DNA of 64,000 nt from Nitrospirota bacterium (GTDB taxonomy: Bacteria; Nitrospirota; Thermodesulfovibrionia; Thermodesulfovibrionales; JdFR-86), in contig CAVRJY010000001.1 in NCBI GenBank assembly GCA_963721805.1, positions 1,216,001 through 1,280,000 of the forward strand. Reading direction: 5' to 3'. Each line of letters opens with the position of its first letter. The stretch's first letter is position 1. The translations under genes were made by a program, and so were the position numbers. Of this stretch, positions 10,663 through 22,831 are shown one piece after another. The notes below the pieces were generated by a model. It was given only the letters and a program-made list of their open reading frames with translations, was not told the origin of the DNA and did not search any database.

Positions 10663-11126
10663 TCCCGGTCAGGCGTCTCGTATGCAGGACCGCGCTGCGC
10701 GTCCTCACAGCACTGCTCCTCGCGTGTTGCGCCGGCGCGGTCGCACTCGCTGATACGGGCAATATAACGATGCCCGGCACTATCAATATAAAGGCGCTCG
10801 AAGACCGCTTCGGCCCCGTGGCCTTTGACCACGAGAAGCACGTGACGATGGCCGGGGCGTGCGGCAAGTGCCACCACCTTCATAACGACAAGACAGTGGA
10901 CGCCTGCAGGACCTGCCATTCGCTCAAGGCCGAGGACTTCAGGGCCACGGCCACGCAGGGCTTTCTTCGGTGCGAGGGCTGCCACTCGGACGCCTCGGCC
11001 GAGTCGCCCGGCATGCCGGGGCTAAAGGTTGCGTTCCACAAGGTCTGCTTCTCGTGCCACGTTGGGATGGCCGGGCTCGGCTCGACCCCAAAGTCGTGCG
11101 AGCGCACCTGCCACTCACGCAGATGA
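10659..11126 (+). CDS. cytochrome c3-like (class III) multiheme cytochrome
   Basis: Signal peptide, PVAFDHEKH, four CxxCH plus one CxxxCH, LKVAFH. Confidence 0.9.
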   Translation: MIPVRRLVCRTALRVLTALLLACCAGAVALADTGNITMPGTINIKALEDRFGPVAFDHEKHVTMAGACGKCHHLHNDKTVDACRTCHSLKAEDFRATATQGFLRCEGCHSDASAESPGMPGLKVAFHKVCFSCHVGMAGLGSTPKSCERTCHSRR

Positions 11127-11146
11127 TTAGCGATAAGGAGGGTGAA

Positions 11147-12106
11147 ATGTCTATAACAAATGAGGCCGCAGAAGGCGGCGCCCGCCCCAGCGGCATATCG
11201 AGGCGCGGTTTCCTCTCGCTCTCTGCCTTCGCGGCGGTCACAGCTATAGCAGGCAGCGCGCTTGCCTCGCCCGGCAACTCGGTGCCTGAGTTCAGCGGCT
11301 GGCCCAAGAGCTATGGCATGCTCACGGACTTCACCGCATGCGTCGGCTGCCGCAGTTGCGAGGCCGCCTGCAACGCGGCCAACAAGATGCCGAAGCCTGA
11401 TAAGCCCTTCGACGATCCGGCTGTCTTCGAGCAGGACCGCTGGCCCACGGCCTCGGCCCTTACGGTGGTAAACCGCTACAAGGGTGCGGACCCATCAAGG
11501 CCGGTATACAGAAAGATACAGTGCAACCACTGCCTCGAGCCCGCGTGCGCCTCGGCCTGCCCGATCCACGCTTACACCAAGACGCCCGAGGGCGCGGTCC
11601 TCTACAACCCGGACCTCTGCTTCGGCTGCCGGTACTGTGTCGTGGCCTGCCCGTTTAACATGCCTGCCTACGACTACGGCAGCGCGCTTCAGCCCAGGAT
11701 CGTAAAGTGCATCATGTGCCACCCCAAGATCGCGAAGGGCGAGGCCCCCGCGTGCGCCGCGGCCTGCCCCGCAGGCGCGATCACGTTCGGCCGCAGGGAA
11801 GAACTTATAAAGGTAGCGCACGAGAGGATCAAGAAGGACCCCGGCCGGTACATAGATCACGTCTATGGCGAGCACGAGGCAGGCGGCACGTCGTGGGTAT
11901 ACCTCTCGGGGGTGCCGTTTGAGCAGCTAGGGTTCCCGGTCAACCTCCCGGACAAGCCGATGATAGAGCTGTCGAAGGACTACCTCTCGTCCGTGCCGGT
12001 GATATTCACTACCTTCCCGGCGATATTCGGGCTCGTTTATTACGCGATGCGTGGTAAGGATAATAAGGACGAAAACGGCAAAGACAAGGAGACCCGCCAT
12101 GAATGA
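11147..12106 (+). CDS. Tat-exported 4Fe-4S dicluster protein (HybA/HmcB/NrfC family)
   Basis: SRRGFL Tat motif; CVGCRSC, CNHCLEPAC, CFGCRYC, CIMC...CAAAC; C-terminal helix; AAGGAGG SD before ATG 11147. Confidence 0.92.
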   Translation: MSITNEAAEGGARPSGISRRGFLSLSAFAAVTAIAGSALASPGNSVPEFSGWPKSYGMLTDFTACVGCRSCEAACNAANKMPKPDKPFDDPAVFEQDRWPTASALTVVNRYKGADPSRPVYRKIQCNHCLEPACASACPIHAYTKTPEGAVLYNPDLCFGCRYCVVACPFNMPAYDYGSALQPRIVKCIMCHPKIAKGEAPACAAACPAGAITFGRREELIKVAHERIKKDPGRYIDHVYGEHEAGGTSWVYLSGVPFEQLGFPVNLPDKPMIELSKDYLSSVPVIFTTFPAIFGLVYYAMRGKDNKDENGKDKETRHE

Positions 12107-13343
12107 CGATGCCCGCGCGGCCGCGCGTCCGATAAGTTTCAGGGAGTGGTTCATGGACAAGCTGTTTATGGGCCTGAGCGCGCAGGACTACGCCCGCAGG
12201 ATAGCGACCCCCTTTAACATGGTCGCGGTCACGATACTCCTGGTGGCCACACCGGTGTTCTTCAGCCGTTACGTTTACGGCCTGGGCTCAGTGATGGACG
12301 CAACGAGCGAGTACCCCTGGGGCGTGCTCTTAAGCTGGGGGATCTTCGCCGGCGAGCCGATGTTCGCGTCCGGTTTCGTAGTGGCGGCGGCCTACTACCT
12401 CTTCGGTATGAAGTCCTTCAGGCCCCTGGTGCGGCTCGCGGTGCTCGGCGGGATGCTCGGCTATGCGTTTGCGGCCTCGTACCTCCTGATAGACCTGGGC
12501 AGGCCGTGGCGCTTGTACTATCCGATGGTCATCAACTTCGGGCCGTCCTCGGTCCTGTTCATCGTGGCCTGGCACGTATCGCTTTATGTCACGGTGCAGC
12601 TCCTGGAGTTCTCGCCGGCCATACTCGAATGGCTGGGCTCCAAGCGCATCCATAAGTGGGCCGTAAACGCCACGGTCGCGCTCATCATCGGCGGCGTCAT
12701 ACTCTCTACCGTGCACCAGTCTGCGCTCGGCGCGATGTACCTGATGACGCCTGGCAAACTCCACCCGCTATGGTATTCGCCGCGCCTGCCGCTGCTGTTT
12801 TTCAGCTCGGCGGTCTACGGCGCGATGTGCTTTGCGATGCTCCTTGCGTTCATCGCGGTGCGGTATTATCCTTCGCGCTGCGACAGGGCGTTTACGGACA
12901 GCATCCCGAAGCTCACGCTGAGCCTCGCCAAGGGCGCGGCGCTTGCGATGTACGTCTATTTCTCGCTCAAGGTGCTGGCGCTTGCCGAGGACAACCGGTG
13001 GGAGCTGCTCCTGACCCCCTTCGGCCACTGGTATCTCGTCGAGCTGCTGTGGTTCGTCGTGACGCCGATGGTGATGATGAGCGTCGCGGTCAAGCGCGAA
13101 AGCATAGGGCTGGCGCGCTTTTCGGCGCTGGCGGCGGCCCTCGGGATACTGCTTAACAGACTGAACGTGAACCTTATAGCGTATAATTGGGACAGGCCCG
13201 GCCACATGCACAACATCATCCCGGCCTGGACCGAGATCGTTATGATTATGGCGATGGTCACGCTGCACGTGATGGCCTTCAGGTGGATCATGAACAGGTT
13301 CCCGGTGACGAACGAGCTGCCGGAATACAGGGATTCGCATTAG
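12099..13343 (+). CDS. NrfD/HybB/HmcC-family membrane subunit
   Basis: DLGRPWR, STVHQSALG, KLHPLWYS, LNRLNV; many TM helices; AAGGAG SD before ATG 12099. Confidence 0.92.
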   Translation: MNDDARAAARPISFREWFMDKLFMGLSAQDYARRIATPFNMVAVTILLVATPVFFSRYVYGLGSVMDATSEYPWGVLLSWGIFAGEPMFASGFVVAAAYYLFGMKSFRPLVRLAVLGGMLGYAFAASYLLIDLGRPWRLYYPMVINFGPSSVLFIVAWHVSLYVTVQLLEFSPAILEWLGSKRIHKWAVNATVALIIGGVILSTVHQSALGAMYLMTPGKLHPLWYSPRLPLLFFSSAVYGAMCFAMLLAFIAVRYYPSRCDRAFTDSIPKLTLSLAKGAALAMYVYFSLKVLALAEDNRWELLLTPFGHWYLVELLWFVVTPMVMMSVAVKRESIGLARFSALAAALGILLNRLNVNLIAYNWDRPGHMHNIIPAWTEIVMIMAMVTLHVMAFRWIMNRFPVTNELPEYRDSH

Positions 13344-13353
13344 GAGGCCCGGG

Positions 13354-14820
13354 ATGCCCTCCCGCCTGAGCATGAGGATCGCGGCCGGATCGGCGGCAGC
13401 CTTCGCCGCGGTAATCGTCGCTGTTGCCCTGTTTGCCGCGACCTGCTTCGCCGAGGACGTCAGAGCCGGGGACGAGCGCGCGGCCTGCCTGAAGTGCCAC
13501 GCGCAGGGCGGCGGGATCAAGCGGTTTCCGGACGGGAAATCCATATCGACGTACGTCGACGGCGTGGAGCTCGAACAGTCCGTGCACGGCGCTCTGCCTT
13601 GCACCGCCTGCCACAAGGACTTCGCCTCGGGCCGCCACCCGGACCGCGCCTTCAGGAACAAGCCTCAGTACCTCATCCGCGAATCGCACGGCTGCCGGGG
13701 CTGCCACTCGGACGCCGCGCTCAGGCGCAAGCAGGTCCACGAGGAGCTGTTTGCGAAGGAAGACGCGGGCGACGCCATTGTATGCACCAACTGCCACGGA
13801 GCGCACGCGATACGGCGCGCCAGCCACGCCTCGGACAAGGGCGAGGACGAGCGCTGCATGGGTTGCCACGAGGGCGGCGGGGCATCTGAGTTCTTAAACG
13901 GCGAACAGCTGCCGGTCCATGTCGACCTCGCTGTGATCGGCAGCTCCGCGCACCACGGCCTGCGGTGCATGGACTGCCATTACTGGATCACGGGGGAGCG
14001 CCACCCGCGCCGGAACTTCCGCTCGCTGAGGGACTACCAGCTCGCCACGGCCGAGATCTGCCGCCGCTGCCACTTCGACAAGTACTCAGAGGTCAGCGAG
14101 AGCATCCACTACGACATGCTCAGAAGCGGGAACCTGAAGGCCCCCACCTGCATCGACTGCCACGGCGGGCACTCGGCCACCTCGCCTGCCAGGGACCGCA
14201 TGGCCGTCGTGCGCAAGTGCCGCGCCTGCCACGGCGGGATATACGAGACATACGCTGCGAGCGTCCACGGCAGCGCCCTGATACAGGAGGGCAACCGCGA
14301 CGTCCCGATCTGCACCGACTGCCACTCCTCGCACAGCATCAAGCGCGCCGACACGAACGCCTTCCACCAGGGGATCCCGGACACGTGCAGCGCCTGCCAC
14401 TCCAACCCGGCCATCATGTCCAAGTACGGGCTCTCGACCGACGTGGTCAGGACCTATCTTGCGGATTTCCACGGCGTGACGATGGAGTTCTACCGCAAGC
14501 AGGGCGGGATGTCGCAGTACCGCCCGGCGCAGAGCATGGCCGTGTGCACCGACTGCCACGGCACGCACGACATCATGCGCATGTCCGGCTCCGACACGAA
14601 GGAGATCAAGGCGCGGCTGCTCGAGCGCTGCCGCAACTGCCACCACGACGCCACCGAGCAGTTCCCCGACGCCTGGCTCTCGCACTACCGGCCGAGCTTG
14701 AAGGTAGCCCCGATGGTGTTCATAGTCGAGAAGTTCTACGGCCTGATGATGCCGCTGATGGTCGTCGGGCTGATACTCCAGATACTGCTTCACATATGGC
14801 GCTACCTGGTCAGCCGGTAA
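13354..14820 (+). CDS. multiheme cytochrome c with 13 CxxCH motifs and C-terminal membrane helix
   Basis: 13 CxxCH counted; repeated SVHG segments; signal peptide; C-terminal ILLHIWR helix. Confidence 0.92.
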   Translation: MPSRLSMRIAAGSAAAFAAVIVAVALFAATCFAEDVRAGDERAACLKCHAQGGGIKRFPDGKSISTYVDGVELEQSVHGALPCTACHKDFASGRHPDRAFRNKPQYLIRESHGCRGCHSDAALRRKQVHEELFAKEDAGDAIVCTNCHGAHAIRRASHASDKGEDERCMGCHEGGGASEFLNGEQLPVHVDLAVIGSSAHHGLRCMDCHYWITGERHPRRNFRSLRDYQLATAEICRRCHFDKYSEVSESIHYDMLRSGNLKAPTCIDCHGGHSATSPARDRMAVVRKCRACHGGIYETYAASVHGSALIQEGNRDVPICTDCHSSHSIKRADTNAFHQGIPDTCSACHSNPAIMSKYGLSTDVVRTYLADFHGVTMEFYRKQGGMSQYRPAQSMAVCTDCHGTHDIMRMSGSDTKEIKARLLERCRNCHHDATEQFPDAWLSHYRPSLKVAPMVFIVEKFYGLMMPLMVVGLILQILLHIWRYLVSR

Positions 14821-14830
14821 GGAGGACACC

Positions 14831-15520
14831 ATGAAACCCGCGATACACGCCGATCAAGAGGAAGTCCGGAGGTTCAGCAACTACCGGATTGCGGAGCACT
14901 TCAGCCTTCTGGCGCTGTTCGTCATCCTCGCCTCGACCGGCCTGGCCCAGAAGTTCCACGAACTCCCGCTCGCGCAGAGCTTCATGGTCTTCATGGGCGG
15001 CATCAGTACCATGCGCGCCGTGCACCACGCCGCCGGGGTTGGGCTGCTGGTCCTCCTTCTCGAACACGTGCTCACGGCCTGCGCCGGGATGTCGTTCTGG
15101 CGCTGGTCGCCCTCCATGCTCGTCACGTTCAAGGACTTCAGGGACACGCAGCAGAACGTCAGCTATTACCTAGGCATACAGCCTGAGCCCCCCAGGTTCG
15201 GCAGGTACAGCTACAAGGAGAAGTTCGTCTACTGGCTGATCCTGCTGGGCAGCCTGCAGCTGATCGTCTCGGGCCTCGTGCTCTGGTTTCCGGTGGCGGT
15301 CGCTAAGGTCCTGCCGGGGCAGTTCATCCCGGCCTCGAAGGTCGTACACTCAAACGACGCGATGACGATATTCCTGATGATTGCGATATGGCATATTTAC
15401 GATTCCATATTCAGCCCCGACGTGCTGCCGCTTGACAAGAGCATCTTTACCGGATATATTTCGGTTAAGAGGATGCGGGCCGAGCACCCGCACGAGGCTG
15501 CAGGCGAAAGACAGGACTGA
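14831..15520 (+). CDS. cytochrome b subunit (FdnI/Cbc-type)
   Basis: RIAEH, VHHAAG, RYSYKEKFVYW, VHSNDA, WHIYDS. Confidence 0.88.
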   Translation: MKPAIHADQEEVRRFSNYRIAEHFSLLALFVILASTGLAQKFHELPLAQSFMVFMGGISTMRAVHHAAGVGLLVLLLEHVLTACAGMSFWRWSPSMLVTFKDFRDTQQNVSYYLGIQPEPPRFGRYSYKEKFVYWLILLGSLQLIVSGLVLWFPVAVAKVLPGQFIPASKVVHSNDAMTIFLMIAIWHIYDSIFSPDVLPLDKSIFTGYISVKRMRAEHPHEAAGERQD

Positions 15521-18527: not shown

Positions 18528-19640
18528 ATGGAGGAAAAACCAGGCAGGCCGTTTGGCGAACTCTACGACTCATTGATCCAGCGCGGCGTGACGCGCCGGG
18601 ACTTCCTGACGTTCTGCAGCACGATGGCCGCGGCCCTGGCGCTGCCGGCCGGTTACGGCGCGACAATTGCCGAGGCGCTGGAGAAGGCAAAGAAGCCGAT
18701 CGTCGTCTGGCTCGAGATGCAGGCCTGCACCGGGGATACAGAGTCCCTGCTTCGGGCCACCAAGCCCGCGGTCGGAGAGCTGCTCCTTGACATCATCTCC
18801 CTGGACTACGCTGAGGTGATCATGGCCTCGGCCGGTTTCCAGGCCGAGAAGTGCCTCTCCGACGTGGTCAAGAACGAGAAGGGCAAGTACATCTGCATCA
18901 TCGAGGGCGCGATCCCGCTGGCCGAGGGCGGCATATACGGCACCATCGGCGGCAGGACAATGGTCGATATTGCTAGAGAGGTCAGCGGCAGCGCCCTGGC
19001 CACAATCGCTGTCGGCAACTGCGCCTGGGACGGAGGAATACCCGCGGCCCAGCCTAACCCCACCGGCGCGGTGGGGGTCAAGGACGCCGTGAGCGGCATA
19101 ACGCTGATCAACCTGCCCGGCTGCCCGATGAACGGAGAGAACCTTACGGCAGTAATCGTGCACTTCCTGACGTTCGGCACCCTGCCGGTCACCGATACCT
19201 TTGGCCGCCCGCGCTTCGCATACGGCAAGCGCGTCCATGACAACTGCGAGCGCCGCGCGCACTTCGACGCCGGGCAGTATGTCCGCAGGTGGGGCGACGA
19301 AGGCCACCGCCTCGGCTGGTGCCTCTACGAGATGGGGTGCAAGGGGCCGGACACCTTCCATAACTGCCCTATCGTCAGGTGGAACGGGGGCACAAGTTGG
19401 CCGGTGCAGTCCGGCCACGGCTGCATAGGCTGTGCTGCGCCTCACTTCTGGGATACGATGACTCCGTTCTACCGCAGGCTGCCCAAGGTGCCGGGCTTCG
19501 GCATCGAGACCACGGCCGACAAGATCGGCCTCGGCGTGGCTGCCGCGGCCGCCGCGGGCCTCGCAGCGCATGCCATAACCAGGGCGGTAAAGGGCGGTTA
19601 CAAGCCCGAGGAACATAAAAAAGAGGAGGATAAAAAATAA
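18528..19640 (+). CDS. group 1 membrane-bound [NiFe] hydrogenase small subunit
   Basis: TRRDFL Tat motif, [30 protein letters not shown]-terminal anchor helix. Confidence 0.95.
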
Positions 19641-21349
19641 TGCCGAAAATCGTAGTCGACCCGATCACGAGGATCGAGGGACATTTGAGGATCGAGGCGC
19701 AGGTCGATGGCGGTAAGATCGTCGACGCGTGGGCCTCGTCCACGGCATTCCGCGGGATAGAGATCATACTGAAGGGCAGAGACCCGCGCGACGCATGGGC
19801 CTTTACCCAGCGAATATGCGGGGTCTGAACGACCGTTCATGCCACCGCATCCGTGCGATGCGTCGAGAGCGCTTTAAACATAACGATCCCCGATAACGCG
19901 AGGGTCATACGCAATATCATCAGCGGCATGCAGCAGGTGCAGGACCACATCATACACTTCTATCACCTGCATGCCCTTGACTGGGTAGACGTCGTCTCCG
20001 CGCTCAAGGCCGACCCGGCCAAGACCTCCGCGCTCGCCCAGTCGATCTCCGACTGGCACAACTCCAGCGCCGCGTATTTCAAGGGAGTGGCGGCAAAGCT
20101 CACCGAGTTCGTCCAGCGCGGCCAGCTCGGCCCGTTCGCGAACGCATACTGGGGGCACAAGGCCTATAAGCTCCCGCCCGAGGCGAACCTGATGGCCGTG
20201 GCTCATTATCTCGAGGCCCTCGAAATTCAGAAAGACATCATCCGCCTGCACGCCACCCTGGGCGGCAAGAACCCCCACTTGCAGACGTACGTCGTTGGCG
20301 GCATGGCGTGCCCGATCGATCCCAACAGCCAAAACGCGATCAACGCCGCGAGTATCCAGTTCATGAAGGATCTTTCCGCGAGGGCCACCGCGTTCGTCGA
20401 GCAGGTATACATCCCTGACCTGCTGGCGGTGGCCTCGTTCTACAAGGACTGGGCCGCGATAGGCGAGGGCGTGGGCAACTACCTCTCAGCCGGCGACTTC
20501 CCCATGGACGGCCTGCCCAACAGCACGAACAACTGGCTTCCGGGCGGAGTGATCAAGGGCAAGAACCTCTCGAAGGTCGAGACCGTAGATCCCAAGAAGA
20601 TCGCAGAGCACGTCGCCCACTCGTGGTATACATACTCTGGCGGCGACGAGAAGGGCGTCCACCCGTATGACGGCGAGACGAGCCCGAAATATACCGGGCC
20701 CAAGCCGCCATATAAGGAACTCGACACTGCCGCCAAATACACCTGGTCCAAGGCCCCGCGTTACGACGACCTGCCGATGGAGGTCGGGCCGCTCTCGCGC
20801 ATGCTAGTGGCGTACGCACAGGGCCACAAAGAGGTGGTCGAGGTCGTGAACCTCGTCTTAGGAAAACTCGGAGTGGGACCGGCGGCGTTGTTCTCGACTC
20901 TGGGCCGCACCGGAGCCCGTGGAGTCGAGACGCTCGTGATAGCCCGTAAGCTGCCGTCGATGATCGACGAGCTCGCGGCGAACATCAAGAAGGGCGACCT
21001 CGCTATAGCTAACACGACTCTATGGGAGCCCTCGACCTGGCCGAGCGAGTGCAGGGGGTACGGTTTCCACGAGGCCCCGCGCGGCATGCTGAGCCATTGG
21101 ATCAACATCAAGGACCAGAAGATCGCGAACTACCAGTGCATAGTGCCCGGCACCTGGAACGTCTCTCCGCGCGACGCAAAGGGGCAGCGCGGCCCTTACG
21201 AGGCTGCCCTGATCGGCACGCCGATCGAGAACCTCGAGCAGCCGCTGGAGATCCTGCGCACGGTGCATTCGTTCGACCCATGCATGGCGTGCGCGGTGCA
21301 CGTGGTCGACGCCCAGAAAAACCCGGTCATCACAGTAAAGGTGAAGTAG
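19640..21349 (+). CDS. [NiFe] hydrogenase large subunit with in-frame TGA at codon 63 (probable selenocysteine), 569 aa if read through
   Basis: ORFs 19640-19828 and 19853-21349 are in one frame: DPITRIEGH...QRICGV*TTVH...[10 protein letters not shown]...APRG...DPCMACAVH. Confidence 0.9.
19846..19862 (+). promoter_or_regulatory. candidate bacterial SECIS hairpin
   Basis: CGCATC-CGTGC-GATGCG, 6-bp stem, G at loop position 2, loop begins 23 nt after the TGA. Confidence 0.55.
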
Positions 21350-21365
21350 GGAAGGAGGACAGACC

Positions 21366-22055
21366 GTGATTGATAAAGGAAATGGGGAGACCTGCTCCCT
21401 TGCGTCACGCATAGTGTATGTCTGGCAGGTCCCGGTCCGCCTCGTGCACTGGACGAACGTCCTGAGCATCCTGACGCTCTCGGTCACGGGCTTCTACATC
21501 GGGGCTCCGTTCATGCACGCCATCGACACGACTCAAAACATAATGGGCAACATCAGGTTCATCCACTTCACGGTCGCCTACATTTTCCTGGTGAGCGTGC
21601 TGTCGCGCATCGCGTGGTCGTTCATGGGCAACAAGTATGCGAGTTGGAGGACATGGTTCCCGTTTTCGCGGCCTCACCTCGGCGAGCTGTGGAACGCCCT
21701 TAAGTTCTATATCATGATAGGCGGCAAGAAGCCCACCGTGGTCGGCCACACGGGCGTTGCGCTCATCACGTATTTTTTCCTGCATGTGCTGTACGCGCTC
21801 ATGCTTCTTACAGGCTTCGCCTTTTACAGCATGGGCAGGCCCGAAAGTTTCGTGACGTTCCTGATGGGCAGGTGGGTGCTGAACTACGTGAGCCCGCAGG
21901 ACCTCCGGCTTTACCACCACATAACCATGTACGTGATCCTGACCTTCGCGGCCGTGCACGTTTACATCGCGTGGTGGTTCGACCTGATCGAGCGAAACGG
22001 GATAATGAGCAGCATGTTCAGCGGCAACAAGTTCCTGCACGAGGAAGAACGTTAA
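21366..22055 (+). CDS. Ni/Fe hydrogenase cytochrome b subunit (HyaC/HupC family)
   Basis: VYVWQVPVRLVHW, IRFIHF, LYHH, VHVY, SSMFSG. Confidence 0.93.
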   Translation: MIDKGNGETCSLASRIVYVWQVPVRLVHWTNVLSILTLSVTGFYIGAPFMHAIDTTQNIMGNIRFIHFTVAYIFLVSVLSRIAWSFMGNKYASWRTWFPFSRPHLGELWNALKFYIMIGGKKPTVVGHTGVALITYFFLHVLYALMLLTGFAFYSMGRPESFVTFLMGRWVLNYVSPQDLRLYHHITMYVILTFAAVHVYIAWWFDLIERNGIMSSMFSGNKFLHEEER

Positions 22056-22554
22056 ACTCTCGATCATAGGCATAGGCAATACCCTGCTCAGCGACGAGGG
22101 TGCGGGGGTGCACGCCGTAAGGGCGCTCGTGGAGAGGTACAGCTTCCCCGGAGGCGTCCGGCTGATCGACGGCGGCACGAAGGGGCTCGAACTGCTCTCT
22201 TACGTCGAGGGCGACCACCTGATGCTGCTTGACGCGGTGGACTTCGGCGCTGCCCCCGGCACGGTGCGCATGATCGAGGGCGACGGCATCCACGCGTTTA
22301 TGGACATGAAGTTCTCGGTCCACCAGATCGGGGTGCCGGACCTCCTGTTCGCCGCGATGCTGACGGACGCGCTTCCGAGGGACGTCTGTCTGGTTGGGAT
22401 ACAGCCTCAGTCGCTCGAGGCAGGGCTGGAGCTTACGGACGTGGTGCGTGGTAAAATGGAAGAACTCCTCGGCATGGCCGTGGAGCGGCTCCGCTCGTGG
22501 GGCGTAGAGGTTGCCATCAAGGAGGCGGCTGATGTGTCTTGCGATTCCCTCTAA
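22051..22554 (+). CDS. hydrogenase maturation protease (HyaD/HybD family); start codon uncertain
   Basis: Frame reads VKLSIIGIGNTLLSDEGAGVH...DGGT...DAV...SVHQ; no ATG/GTG/TTG upstream of the conserved N-terminus. Confidence 0.85.
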   Translation, partial: VKLSIIGIGNTLLSDEGAGVHAVRALVERYSFPGGVRLIDGGTKGLELLSYVEGDHLMLLDAVDFGAAPGTVRMIEGDGIHAFMDMKFSVHQIGVPDLLFAAMLTDALPRDVCLVGIQPQSLEAGLELTDVVRGKMEELLGMAVERLRSWGVEVAIKEAADVSCDSL

Positions 22555-22831
22555 AGTTATAGAACTTGACGATATGCTCGCTACCGTGGATCTGTACGGC
22601 GCGCGCACCTCGGTGAGCCTGATGCTGATGCCCGAGGAGGTCAGGGTGGGCGACTACGTGCTCGTCCATGCCGGGTTCGCCCTGCAGCGCCTCGATGAGG
22701 CCGCGGCGCTCGATTCGCTCGCGCTGCTTCGTGAGGTTCAGGAGTTCATCGAGGCCGAAGAGGCCGAGGCGCGCGCCTCGGGTTTATTGTGCGGCCCCGT
22801 CCACGAAGGGCCTAAACTGAACTATTTGTAG
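22532..22831 (+). CDS. hypC: hydrogenase assembly chaperone HypC/HupF
   Basis: MCLAIP start behind [19 protein letters not shown]. Confidence 0.93.

Follow-up and report, generated by a model that had tools for sequence, protein, structure and literature searches.

A probable selenocysteine at the predicted Ni-Fe bridging ligand of a Group 1 uptake hydrogenase from Nitrospirota

Introduction

Selenocysteine (Sec; U in one-letter motifs) in the N-terminal ligand pair of [NiFe] hydrogenases has been systematically described only for Group 4 enzymes, by Takano et al. (Front Microbiol 2026, PMC13582414), whose account of these variants lists the forms CXXU, UXXC, and UXXU and terms UXXC and UXXU previously unrecognised. 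For Groups 1 and 3, the same account places Sec at the C-terminus, save for two Group 1 sequences and one Group 3 sequence of the CXXU type noted by Baltazar in 2011. Evans et al. (2021, PMC8020662) cite the same review in their passage on 'purported examples' with a substituted bridging Cys, there C579, and the hydrogenase passage of a 2026 selenoproteome review (PMC13188914) names only UxxC hydrogenases, in sulfate reducers and methanogens. The present study concerns a window of 64,000 nucleotides (nt), i.e., the whole stretch of DNA analysed, from a Nitrospirota bacterium (assembly GCA_963721805.1, contig CAVRJY010000001.1, positions 1,216,001 to 1,280,000). At positions 19640..21349, it holds a [NiFe] hydrogenase large-subunit gene with an in-frame TGA at the second ligand codon of the N-terminal L1 motif.

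We consider it highly probable that this is a functional selenoprotein gene in which UGA 19826 would encode Sec and, jointly with this, that its product serves as the large subunit in a Group 1 enzyme, a periplasmic [NiFe] hydrogenase for H2 uptake that is linked to cytochrome b. As CxxU forms of Group 1 are already in print, the window gene joins a known, barely described kind. Full-text literature searches, with supplements outside their scope, returned no description of N-terminal Sec in Nitrospirota Group 1 enzymes, and neither a Group 1 UxxU form nor a clade-wide distribution. The CxxC/CxxU/UxxU family as a whole is the more novel object. Chances seem about even that the Nitrospirota Group 1 uptake hydrogenases form a natural series of CxxC, CxxU, and UxxU enzymes at 65% identity or more, sometimes as paralogues in one genome, in which selenium bridges Ni and Fe in CxxU and also binds Ni terminally in UxxU.

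Results and Discussion

The large-subunit gene and its ligand motifs

The features of the gene on which the argument rests are the following.

19640..21349, plus strand: [NiFe] hydrogenase large subunit (PF00374), 569 residues with TGA 19826 read as Sec
19817..19819, plus strand: first L1 ligand codon, TGC (Cys60); TGA at the same codon in 55 of 177 typed relatives
19826..19828, plus strand: in-frame TGA, proposed Sec, at the second L1 ligand of RxCGxC (residue 63); aligned to residue 68 of the D. gigas enzyme
19844..19863, plus strand: proposed Sec insertion sequence (SECIS) with a 6-bp stem (19846-19851/19857-19862) and loop CGUGC at 19852-19856 (G19853, U19854)
21275..21301, plus strand: C-terminal ligand motif DPCMACAVH (residues 546-554), both ligands Cys (TGY), no Sec
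21302..21349, plus strand: 15-residue C-terminal extension, the tail beyond His554, and stop TAG (21347-21349)

Under table 11, two open reading frames of the same frame are called here, 19640..19828 (62 aa) and 19853..21349 (498 aa, GTG start). Re-deriving them confirmed the original prediction that both belong to a single frame whose sole break is TGA 19826-19828 at the second Cys of RxCGxC: with TGA read as U, 19640-21349 is one frame with a single TGA, at residue 63 (RICGVUTTVH). The read-through product matches PF00374 over its entire length (E 8e-238, profile positions 1-508 of 508), and both ligand motifs of the Group 1 large subunits of this family, RxCGxCxxxH with U and DPCxxCxxH, lie in one polypeptide. 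The ATG overlaps the TAA of the small-subunit gene by one base and is preceded by GAGGAGG. That standard pipelines would split such a gene was likewise borne out, since in the public protein collection it is represented by its 498-residue part, which begins with GTG 19853.

Over the N-terminal 107 residues, the alignment with the D. gigas enzyme is free of gaps (query 3-107 on chain 8-112) and places C60 on residue 65 and U63 on residue 68. Cys68 of D. gigas, together with Cys533, is what we take to be the Ni-Fe bridge (Volbeda 1995). For an N-terminal CXXU Sec, the passage of Takano et al. on ligand positions (PMC13582414) predicts that Sec bridges Ni and Fe, and that the first position binds Ni only. 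The proposal that the Sec site is the second L1 Cys and thus a bridging ligand is in agreement with both comparisons. The C-terminal motif DPCMAC is all Cys, as had been noted from the window. A canonical [NiFeSe] hydrogenase (group 1a) carries Sec at the first Cys of DPxxxC; that position is Cys in the window and, with the second ligand, in every typed relative that has a C-terminus.

Concerning the class of the enzyme, the solved chains closest to the large subunit are the membrane-bound enzyme of Allochromatium vinosum (3myr_B, 1.1e-209), Salmonella Hyd-5, and E. coli Hyd-1. While 3myr_B is presumably an Isp-type hydrogenase, no Isp genes lie between the subunit genes of the window. As judged from the small subunit, the enzyme probably belongs to HydDB subgroup 1f. 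Sequence, solved relatives, and operon all point to Group 1 and not to Group 4.

Selenocysteine machinery of the genome

The genome that contains the window comprises 2.78 Mb on 9 contigs and is 94% complete. The original prediction had made its reading dependent on Sec machinery, and selA, selB, selD, and tRNA-SeC were all found. The selA match has an E-value of 1.7e-146, the SECIS-binding wing domain of SelB was recognised at 2.5e-20 in a 628-aa frame, and selD scores above its curated cut-off (1.9e-106). ARAGORN reports a single tRNA-SeC(tca), which is 97 nt in length and has a long extra arm; among the 48 tRNAs it found no second SelC-like tRNA, and one ordinary 76-nt tRNA-Cys(gca) is present.

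Two further genes of this genome carry an in-frame TGA in a Sec context, namely selD itself, with one TGA in the context SCSGUAAKY (G000:C1:1484911), and an FdhA-like gene with UGA in CARVUHAP (G000:C2:373379, minus strand). The MvhD/FlpD genes of the genome contain no TGA. TGA is not reassigned genome-wide; it is the commonest stop, terminating 387 of the 963 stop-to-stop frames of at least 400 codons. A genome-wide scan for in-frame TGA followed by a hairpin with GU in the loop yielded 914 candidates, was uninformative, and was replaced by the family searches for selD and fdhA.

The hairpin downstream of the UGA

Bacterial SECIS elements are characterised as hairpins that follow the UGA at a short distance and have a G at position 1 or 2 of the apical loop (PMC1088965; section 18 of PMC13582414). 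The hairpin at 19846-19862 agrees with this description and folds as the original prediction had it, with 6 bp, G at loop position 2, and 23 nt between the UGA and the loop; an additional A19844-U19863 pair across a one-base bulge is possible. An Rfam scan of 19600-20000 with E up to 1 gave no match.

Evidence for its function comes from the relatives. In a codon-aligned 69-nt alignment (A1) of 76 distinct Sec-type sequences, T34, C35, G37, T38, and G41 are invariant, and 84.6% of the cells of the named helix (columns 28-35 with 41-47) pair, as against 29-52% when the partner is slid. The lower stem occurs in two coexisting registers, AGC...GCU and GCC...GCG, each with a bulged C. Counting distinct sequences, 52 of 53 UxxU and all 24 CxxU genes use GTG as the Val codon of the loop; among CxxC genes, 1 of 22 from the same order and 15 of the remaining 73 do so. 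An apical-loop hairpin at that column is predicted in 53/53 UxxU and 19/24 CxxU sequences; for the five sequences of a distant paralogue group (L180-L184), a different hairpin is predicted. Relative to its sister locus L189, the window has both bases exchanged in three adjacent pairs of the stem, with A-U replaced by G-C, G-C by C-G, and C-G by A-U (AGC...GCU to GCA...UGC). These swaps keep the pairing at the protein cost of Ser to Ala and Ala to Cys.

Spacing and the decoding of two UGAs

Counted with the U of UGA as position 1, the loops of this genome are spaced as follows.

Hydrogenase, from UGA 19826: loop CGUGC, loop G at 28
Hydrogenase, from the first L1 codon 19817: loop CGUGC, loop G at 37
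Predicted selD SECIS: loop CGUGC, identical to that of the hydrogenase, loop G at 37
FdhA-like gene: 7-bp stem, loop GGUCU at 22-26, loop G at 22-23

The spacing in the FdhA-like gene resembles that of the E. coli fdhF SECIS with its G23 and U24. The SelB of this organism thus appears to serve loops at about 23 to 37 nt from the UGA, and with such a range it is plausible that in the UxxU relatives one SECIS recodes two UGAs nine bases apart. In its treatment of Group 4, the text of Takano et al. (PMC13582414) likewise proposes a single downstream SECIS for both UGAs. We also considered a second hairpin directly 3' of the first L1 codon, in which the second UGA would be paired, as an element of its own for the first UGA in UxxU genes. 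It was set aside, because the ribosome would enclose its 5' arm while decoding the first UGA and because it is inconsistently predicted.

A separate observation concerns codons 6-7 after the first ligand (A1 columns 16-21), which are near-invariant ACG GTT in UxxU genes, with a third-position entropy of 0.4/0.6 bits versus 1.3/1.7 in CxxU. This hints at an extra RNA-level need for the decoding of two UGAs; no convincing pairing partner for these codons was found.

Distribution of the L1 types

A search of 61 related genomes with the read-through protein gave a match at E <= 1e-100 in 52 of them. The 29 loci collected from these relatives (L013-L041) all read RIUGVUTTVH, with TGA at both L1 codons, and all carry DPC[ML]AC. 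When the search was widened to the whole order, 188 of 317 genomes showed a match at <= 1e-150; among the 150 matches listed, a hand count gave two TGA in 96, a single TGA in 19, the window among them, and no TGA in 35.

With 69 further stretches added, 177 loci could be typed, comprising 95 CxxC, 55 UxxU, 27 CxxU, and no UxxC forms; three proteins are counted twice in this set (L067/L169, L068/L125, and L069/L132), and two more loci are without an N-terminus. The second L1 codon is accordingly TGA in 82 and TGY in 95 of the 177 loci. This sharing of the TGA at the same codon settles a point that the original prediction had left to homologue searches, and speaks against a recent nonsense mutation. 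In the window's own family, the eight typed loci are all UxxU. The reading proposed from the window was supported as such and needs correction in two respects: the gene is not a one-off case but belongs to a large, mostly UxxU family, and the placement of Sec is not wholly unreported.

Among 80 named records, 73 are CxxC, 3 CxxU, 2 UxxU, and 2 untypable; a search word ending in ...RIC biased this sample in favour of Cys forms. All five Sec forms among them are entered under Nitrospirota, Dissulfurispiraceae or Thermodesulfovibrio, and the CxxC records come from Gemmatimonadota, Geobacterales/Desulfuromonadales, Chloroflexota, Acidobacteriota, and others. On the level of the phylum, a strict DNA match to (TGA/TGC/TGT)-GGN-GTN-TGA-ACN-ACN-GTN-CAY was found in 76 of 401 sampled genomes, other orders and classes included, and never with the reversed control pattern. 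By our own count, the first codon of these matches is TGA in 53 and TGY in 24 cases. A scan of metagenomes with a pattern specific to the SECIS variant of the window returned no stretch.

In a sample of Chloroflexota, the same pattern was met in 1 of 401 genomes, a CxxU locus (L197; G615:C444:890-913, minus strand). The N-terminal Sec form thus extends beyond the Nitrospirota, and the count is a lower bound, since the strict pattern misses variants with other residues.

In the databases, two closer relatives of the window gene (87% and 84% identical) are stored as 498-aa fragments starting with MRCVES; they share the Cys that has replaced Ala in the hairpin of the window and, by implication, a stop just upstream. 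The rest of the examined database proteins (118 of 121) are full-length CxxC forms. Geobacterales, Gemmatimonadota, Chloroflexota, and Acidobacteriota have CxxC homologues at 59-74% identity; P0005-P0011 and L140 (G113) are CxxC forms of full length with 71-74% identity.

Several genomes of the order, namely G085, G086, G081, G091, G095, G069, and G048, contain a Sec-type (CxxU or UxxU) gene together with a CxxC paralogue (e.g., L124+L146, L131+L151). Such pairs could allow a selenium-dependent switch, by analogy with known Sec/Cys isoenzyme pairs.

Phylogeny and origin of the single selenocysteine

The tree was computed with IQ-TREE (LG+G4) from 111 rows, i.e., the window, the 29 loci L013-L041, L067/68/69/72, 67 of the loci L122-L189, and 10 outgroups, with U masked; rows below 520 aa did not enter it, nor did the remaining 66 named records. 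Support is given by the Shimodaira-Hasegawa-like approximate likelihood ratio test (SH-aLRT).

The window is sister to L189 (support 95). Apart from the window, the 4-row clade (100) and the 6-row clade (95) around this pair consist of UxxU members. A wider clade of 42 rows is composed of 40 UxxU genes, one CxxC gene (L140), and the window as the only CxxU. From this nesting within a UxxU clade, the single Sec most simply results from reversion of the first one: on the simplest reading, TGA changed to TGC at the first, Ni-terminal ligand on the window's own branch, and the bridging Sec and the SECIS would have been kept. The position of L140 within an otherwise UxxU clade suggests that both ligands can return to Cys as well. 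The tree as a whole requires no fewer than 8 changes of the L1 state, and CxxU forms at least 3 separate groups, one of which is the distant paralogue group L180-L184 (50-52% identical).

The members of that group (in G027, G023, G016, G034, and G011) are CxxU paralogues with another, longer hairpin 3' of the UGA (8-bp stem, loop GCUU in 3 of 5), and their sister L185 is CxxC. The group looks like an independent or old acquisition of Sec.

Weighing the alternatives

Several results count against a Sec-encoding UGA or limit the weight of the evidence for it. That selenium is in the protein is deduced from sequence and comparison. By its folding energy, the hairpin does not stand out (z -0.69; equalled by 47 of 200 shuffled sequences), and RNAalifold retains only 3 consensus pairs, the top three, for the 76 Sec-type sequences. 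The original prediction had suggested covariation in relatives as a check: the hairpin is kept with G in the apical loop, and there are the three compensatory swaps relative to L189, but alignment-wide covariation is no better than in shuffled alignments (0.098 vs 0.103, a value reached by 343 of 500), and the helix shows changes on both sides at only 3 pairs. Much of the SECIS support is therefore conservation among related genomes and less independent covariation. An apical-loop hairpin at the same column is moreover predicted in Cys-type genes (13/22 in the same order and 58/73 elsewhere), so that GU in the loop is the discriminating feature; section 18 of Takano et al. (PMC13582414) draws the same distinction by the loop for Group 4. 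Both the TGC at 19817 and the TGA at 19826 rest on one assembly of the window genome, as the single public DNA run with part of the stretch (about 1/10 of the sampled words) gave contigs over parts of 20257-21400 only, outside the TGA and TGC. The tree is a quick search with SH-aLRT support. Finally, the advantage of Sec at this position is not obvious, given that in the results reported by Evans et al. (PMC8020662) the engineered Hyd-1 variant C79U keeps only 13% of the native H2-oxidation rate and C76U 3%, both being almost inactive at 10% O2. A natural enzyme that evolved around Sec may behave differently from engineered variants.

The alternative to be taken most seriously retains the gene and its read-through but has UGA decoded as cysteine or another standard residue, by a SelC-like tRNA carrying Cys (tRNA-ReC type) or by near-cognate read-through, such that the enzyme would be all-Cys and UGA and hairpin would serve translational control only. 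It draws on the statement in Takano et al. (PMC13582414) that tRNA-ReC-like genes are enriched in UXXU genomes and that, where a genome has them, one or both UGAs of N-terminal Sec-type hydrogenases may be Cys. In the 94%-complete window genome, however, the 48 tRNAs include only one of the SelC type and one ordinary tRNA-Cys(gca), the full selA/selB/selD set is present, and the hydrogenase hairpin has the very loop of the predicted selD SECIS; we therefore regard this decoding as unlikely.

We give still less credence to an error in assembly or base calling, by which 19826 would truly be TGC/TGT, or 19817 truly TGA and the gene an ordinary UxxU member. In favour of an error, besides the dependence on one assembly, no other member of the 42-row clade is CxxU. 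Against the first variant, every close relative has TGA at the second position. CxxU is also a recurrent natural state, with 27 loci at no fewer than 3 places on the tree, and the gene is at least 22% diverged from every species-level relative and has its own changes in the SECIS arms, so that a lineage-specific change from TGA to TGC is unremarkable. Hardly any room is left for a pseudogene, in which a nonsense mutation from TGC/TGT to TGA would leave a 62-residue product only. The broken frame under table 11 and the 498-residue fragment of the public calls would fit it, but 82 of the 177 typed loci, which come from many different families within the phylum, have the same TGA, the remaining frame, ligand motifs, and accessory genes are intact, and the downstream hairpin has been kept by compensatory changes in the window lineage.

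Operon and neighbouring genes

The large-subunit gene is part of an operon with four further genes.

18528..19640, plus strand: hydrogenase small subunit, 370 aa (PF14720 2.7e-34, PF01058 5.7e-26), with twin-arginine translocation (Tat) motif TRRDFL and a C-terminal membrane-anchor region
21366..22055, plus strand: cytochrome b membrane subunit, 229 aa (PF01292 8.4e-25)
22108..22554, plus strand: hydrogenase maturation endopeptidase of the HycI/HyaD type, 148 aa (PF01750 1.1e-27)
22511..22831, plus strand: HypC/HupF-type maturation chaperone, 106 aa (PF01455 1.1e-25), the last gene of the operon

The membrane-bound, cytochrome b-linked operon of the original prediction was thus recovered, with a Tat-signal small subunit, the large subunit, cytochrome b, a HycI-type protease, and HypC. 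So were the C-terminal extension and the operon's own protease gene, as a 15-residue tail follows His554 and the PF01750 gene lies at 22108..22554; alignments to mature solved chains stop at residue 554, and the extension is presumed to be cut off after this His by the operon protease.

The proximal-cluster motif of the small subunit reads C67-T-G-D70 (18726-18737), with Asp instead of the second Cys when aligned with 1h2a_S and 8pou_S. Asp or Asn also occupies this site in relatives of each of the three L1 types (CTGD, CAGN, CAGD, CCGN), and the substitution is unconnected with the use of Sec. A change of this proximal-cluster Cys to Asn/Asp in the small subunit is reported for group 1f in the relevant part of Mohammadi 2017 (PMC5364354).

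Upstream of the operon are a histidine kinase and LuxR-type regulator pair and a tRNA-Arg; 3' of it, convergent, unrelated genes follow. Further upstream, at 10970-15520 on the same strand, genes for a 4Fe-4S dicluster protein, a membrane protein of the NrfD type, a cytochrome c with several haems (c7/c3 domains), and another protein of the cytochrome b561 type form a four-gene module that looks like a quinone-linked redox complex, adjoining the two-component system ahead of the hydrogenase operon.

Proposed decoding and maturation

For a selenoprotein gene, the parts described above can be combined into the following model. SelB with Sec-tRNA(Sec), recruited by the hairpin at 19846-19862 with its loop CGUGC, would decode UGA 19826-19828 as Sec. 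The product would then present Cys60, Sec63, Cys548, and Cys551 as ligands, so that a selenolate, not a thiolate, would bridge Ni and Fe. HypC would aid in the delivery of the NiFe(CN)2CO cofactor to the precursor, the protease of the operon would trim it after His554, and the enzyme would be exported together with the Tat-signal small subunit. Electrons are expected to pass via three iron-sulphur clusters to cytochrome b and on to quinone. The gene itself would descend from the two-Sec form (U-x-x-U) common in Nitrospirota.

Comparison with known hydrogenases

If the proposed decoding is true, the enzyme represents a [NiFeSe] chemistry never characterised in a natural enzyme. Current reviews place the selenium of hydrogenases at one terminal Ni ligand, in sulfate reducers and methanogens, and this view would have to be revised if a widespread uptake enzyme contained a bridging selenolate. 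On the same condition, the window lineage gave up the terminal Sec and had to keep the bridging one, and the bridging position would therefore be the one under selection. Close natural versions with Cys, one Sec, and two Sec could be used to ask for the role of Sec at each ligand position, for which so far only engineered variants of low activity have been available. In practical terms, gene callers store these genes as 498-residue fragments, and surveys of H2 metabolism in Nitrospirota therefore undercount or misclassify them.

Among the described systems, the N-terminal Sec variants of Group 4, as presented by Takano et al., resemble the window family in their CXXU and UXXU forms, in the SECIS-like hairpin that follows with G at loop position 1 or 2, and in the co-occurrence of selABCD. 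Group 4 enzymes are energy-converting and multisubunit, however, in contrast to the Group 1 periplasmic uptake enzyme of the window with its Tat-signal small subunit, cytochrome b, C-terminal extension, and protease. The two Group 1 CXXU sequences of Baltazar et al. (Eur J Inorg Chem 2011:948, as related in PMC13582414) agree with the window in motif type, group, and predicted bridging Sec.

Engineered E. coli Hyd-1, in the part of the work of Evans et al. that deals with C79U and C76U, carries Sec at the same two N-terminal ligand positions of a membrane-bound Group 1 enzyme. Those variants are artificial single substitutions obtained via EF-Tu and UAG, whereas the proposed Sec of the window would be natural.

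The canonical [NiFeSe] hydrogenases of HydDB group 1a (Desulfomicrobium baculatum 1CC1 and Desulfovibrio vulgaris 2WPN) are, as is proposed for the window enzyme, periplasmic Group 1 enzymes with a UGA-encoded Sec as Ni ligand. Their Sec is a terminal Ni ligand at the first Cys of the C-terminal motif, where the window has Cys, and they match the window large subunit at 1e-88 to 1e-101 over partial lengths, compared to 1e-209 for 3myr_B. In overall sequence and operon layout, the window enzyme resembles Group 1 membrane-bound uptake enzymes with Cys ligands, i.e., Allochromatium vinosum 3MYR and the HydDB 1f enzymes of Geobacter, Roseiflexus, and Frankia. The group 1f enzymes, as far as they are covered in PMC5364354, share the Asp/Asn substitution of the small subunit with the window; unlike the window, both they and 3MYR have Cys at both L1 positions.

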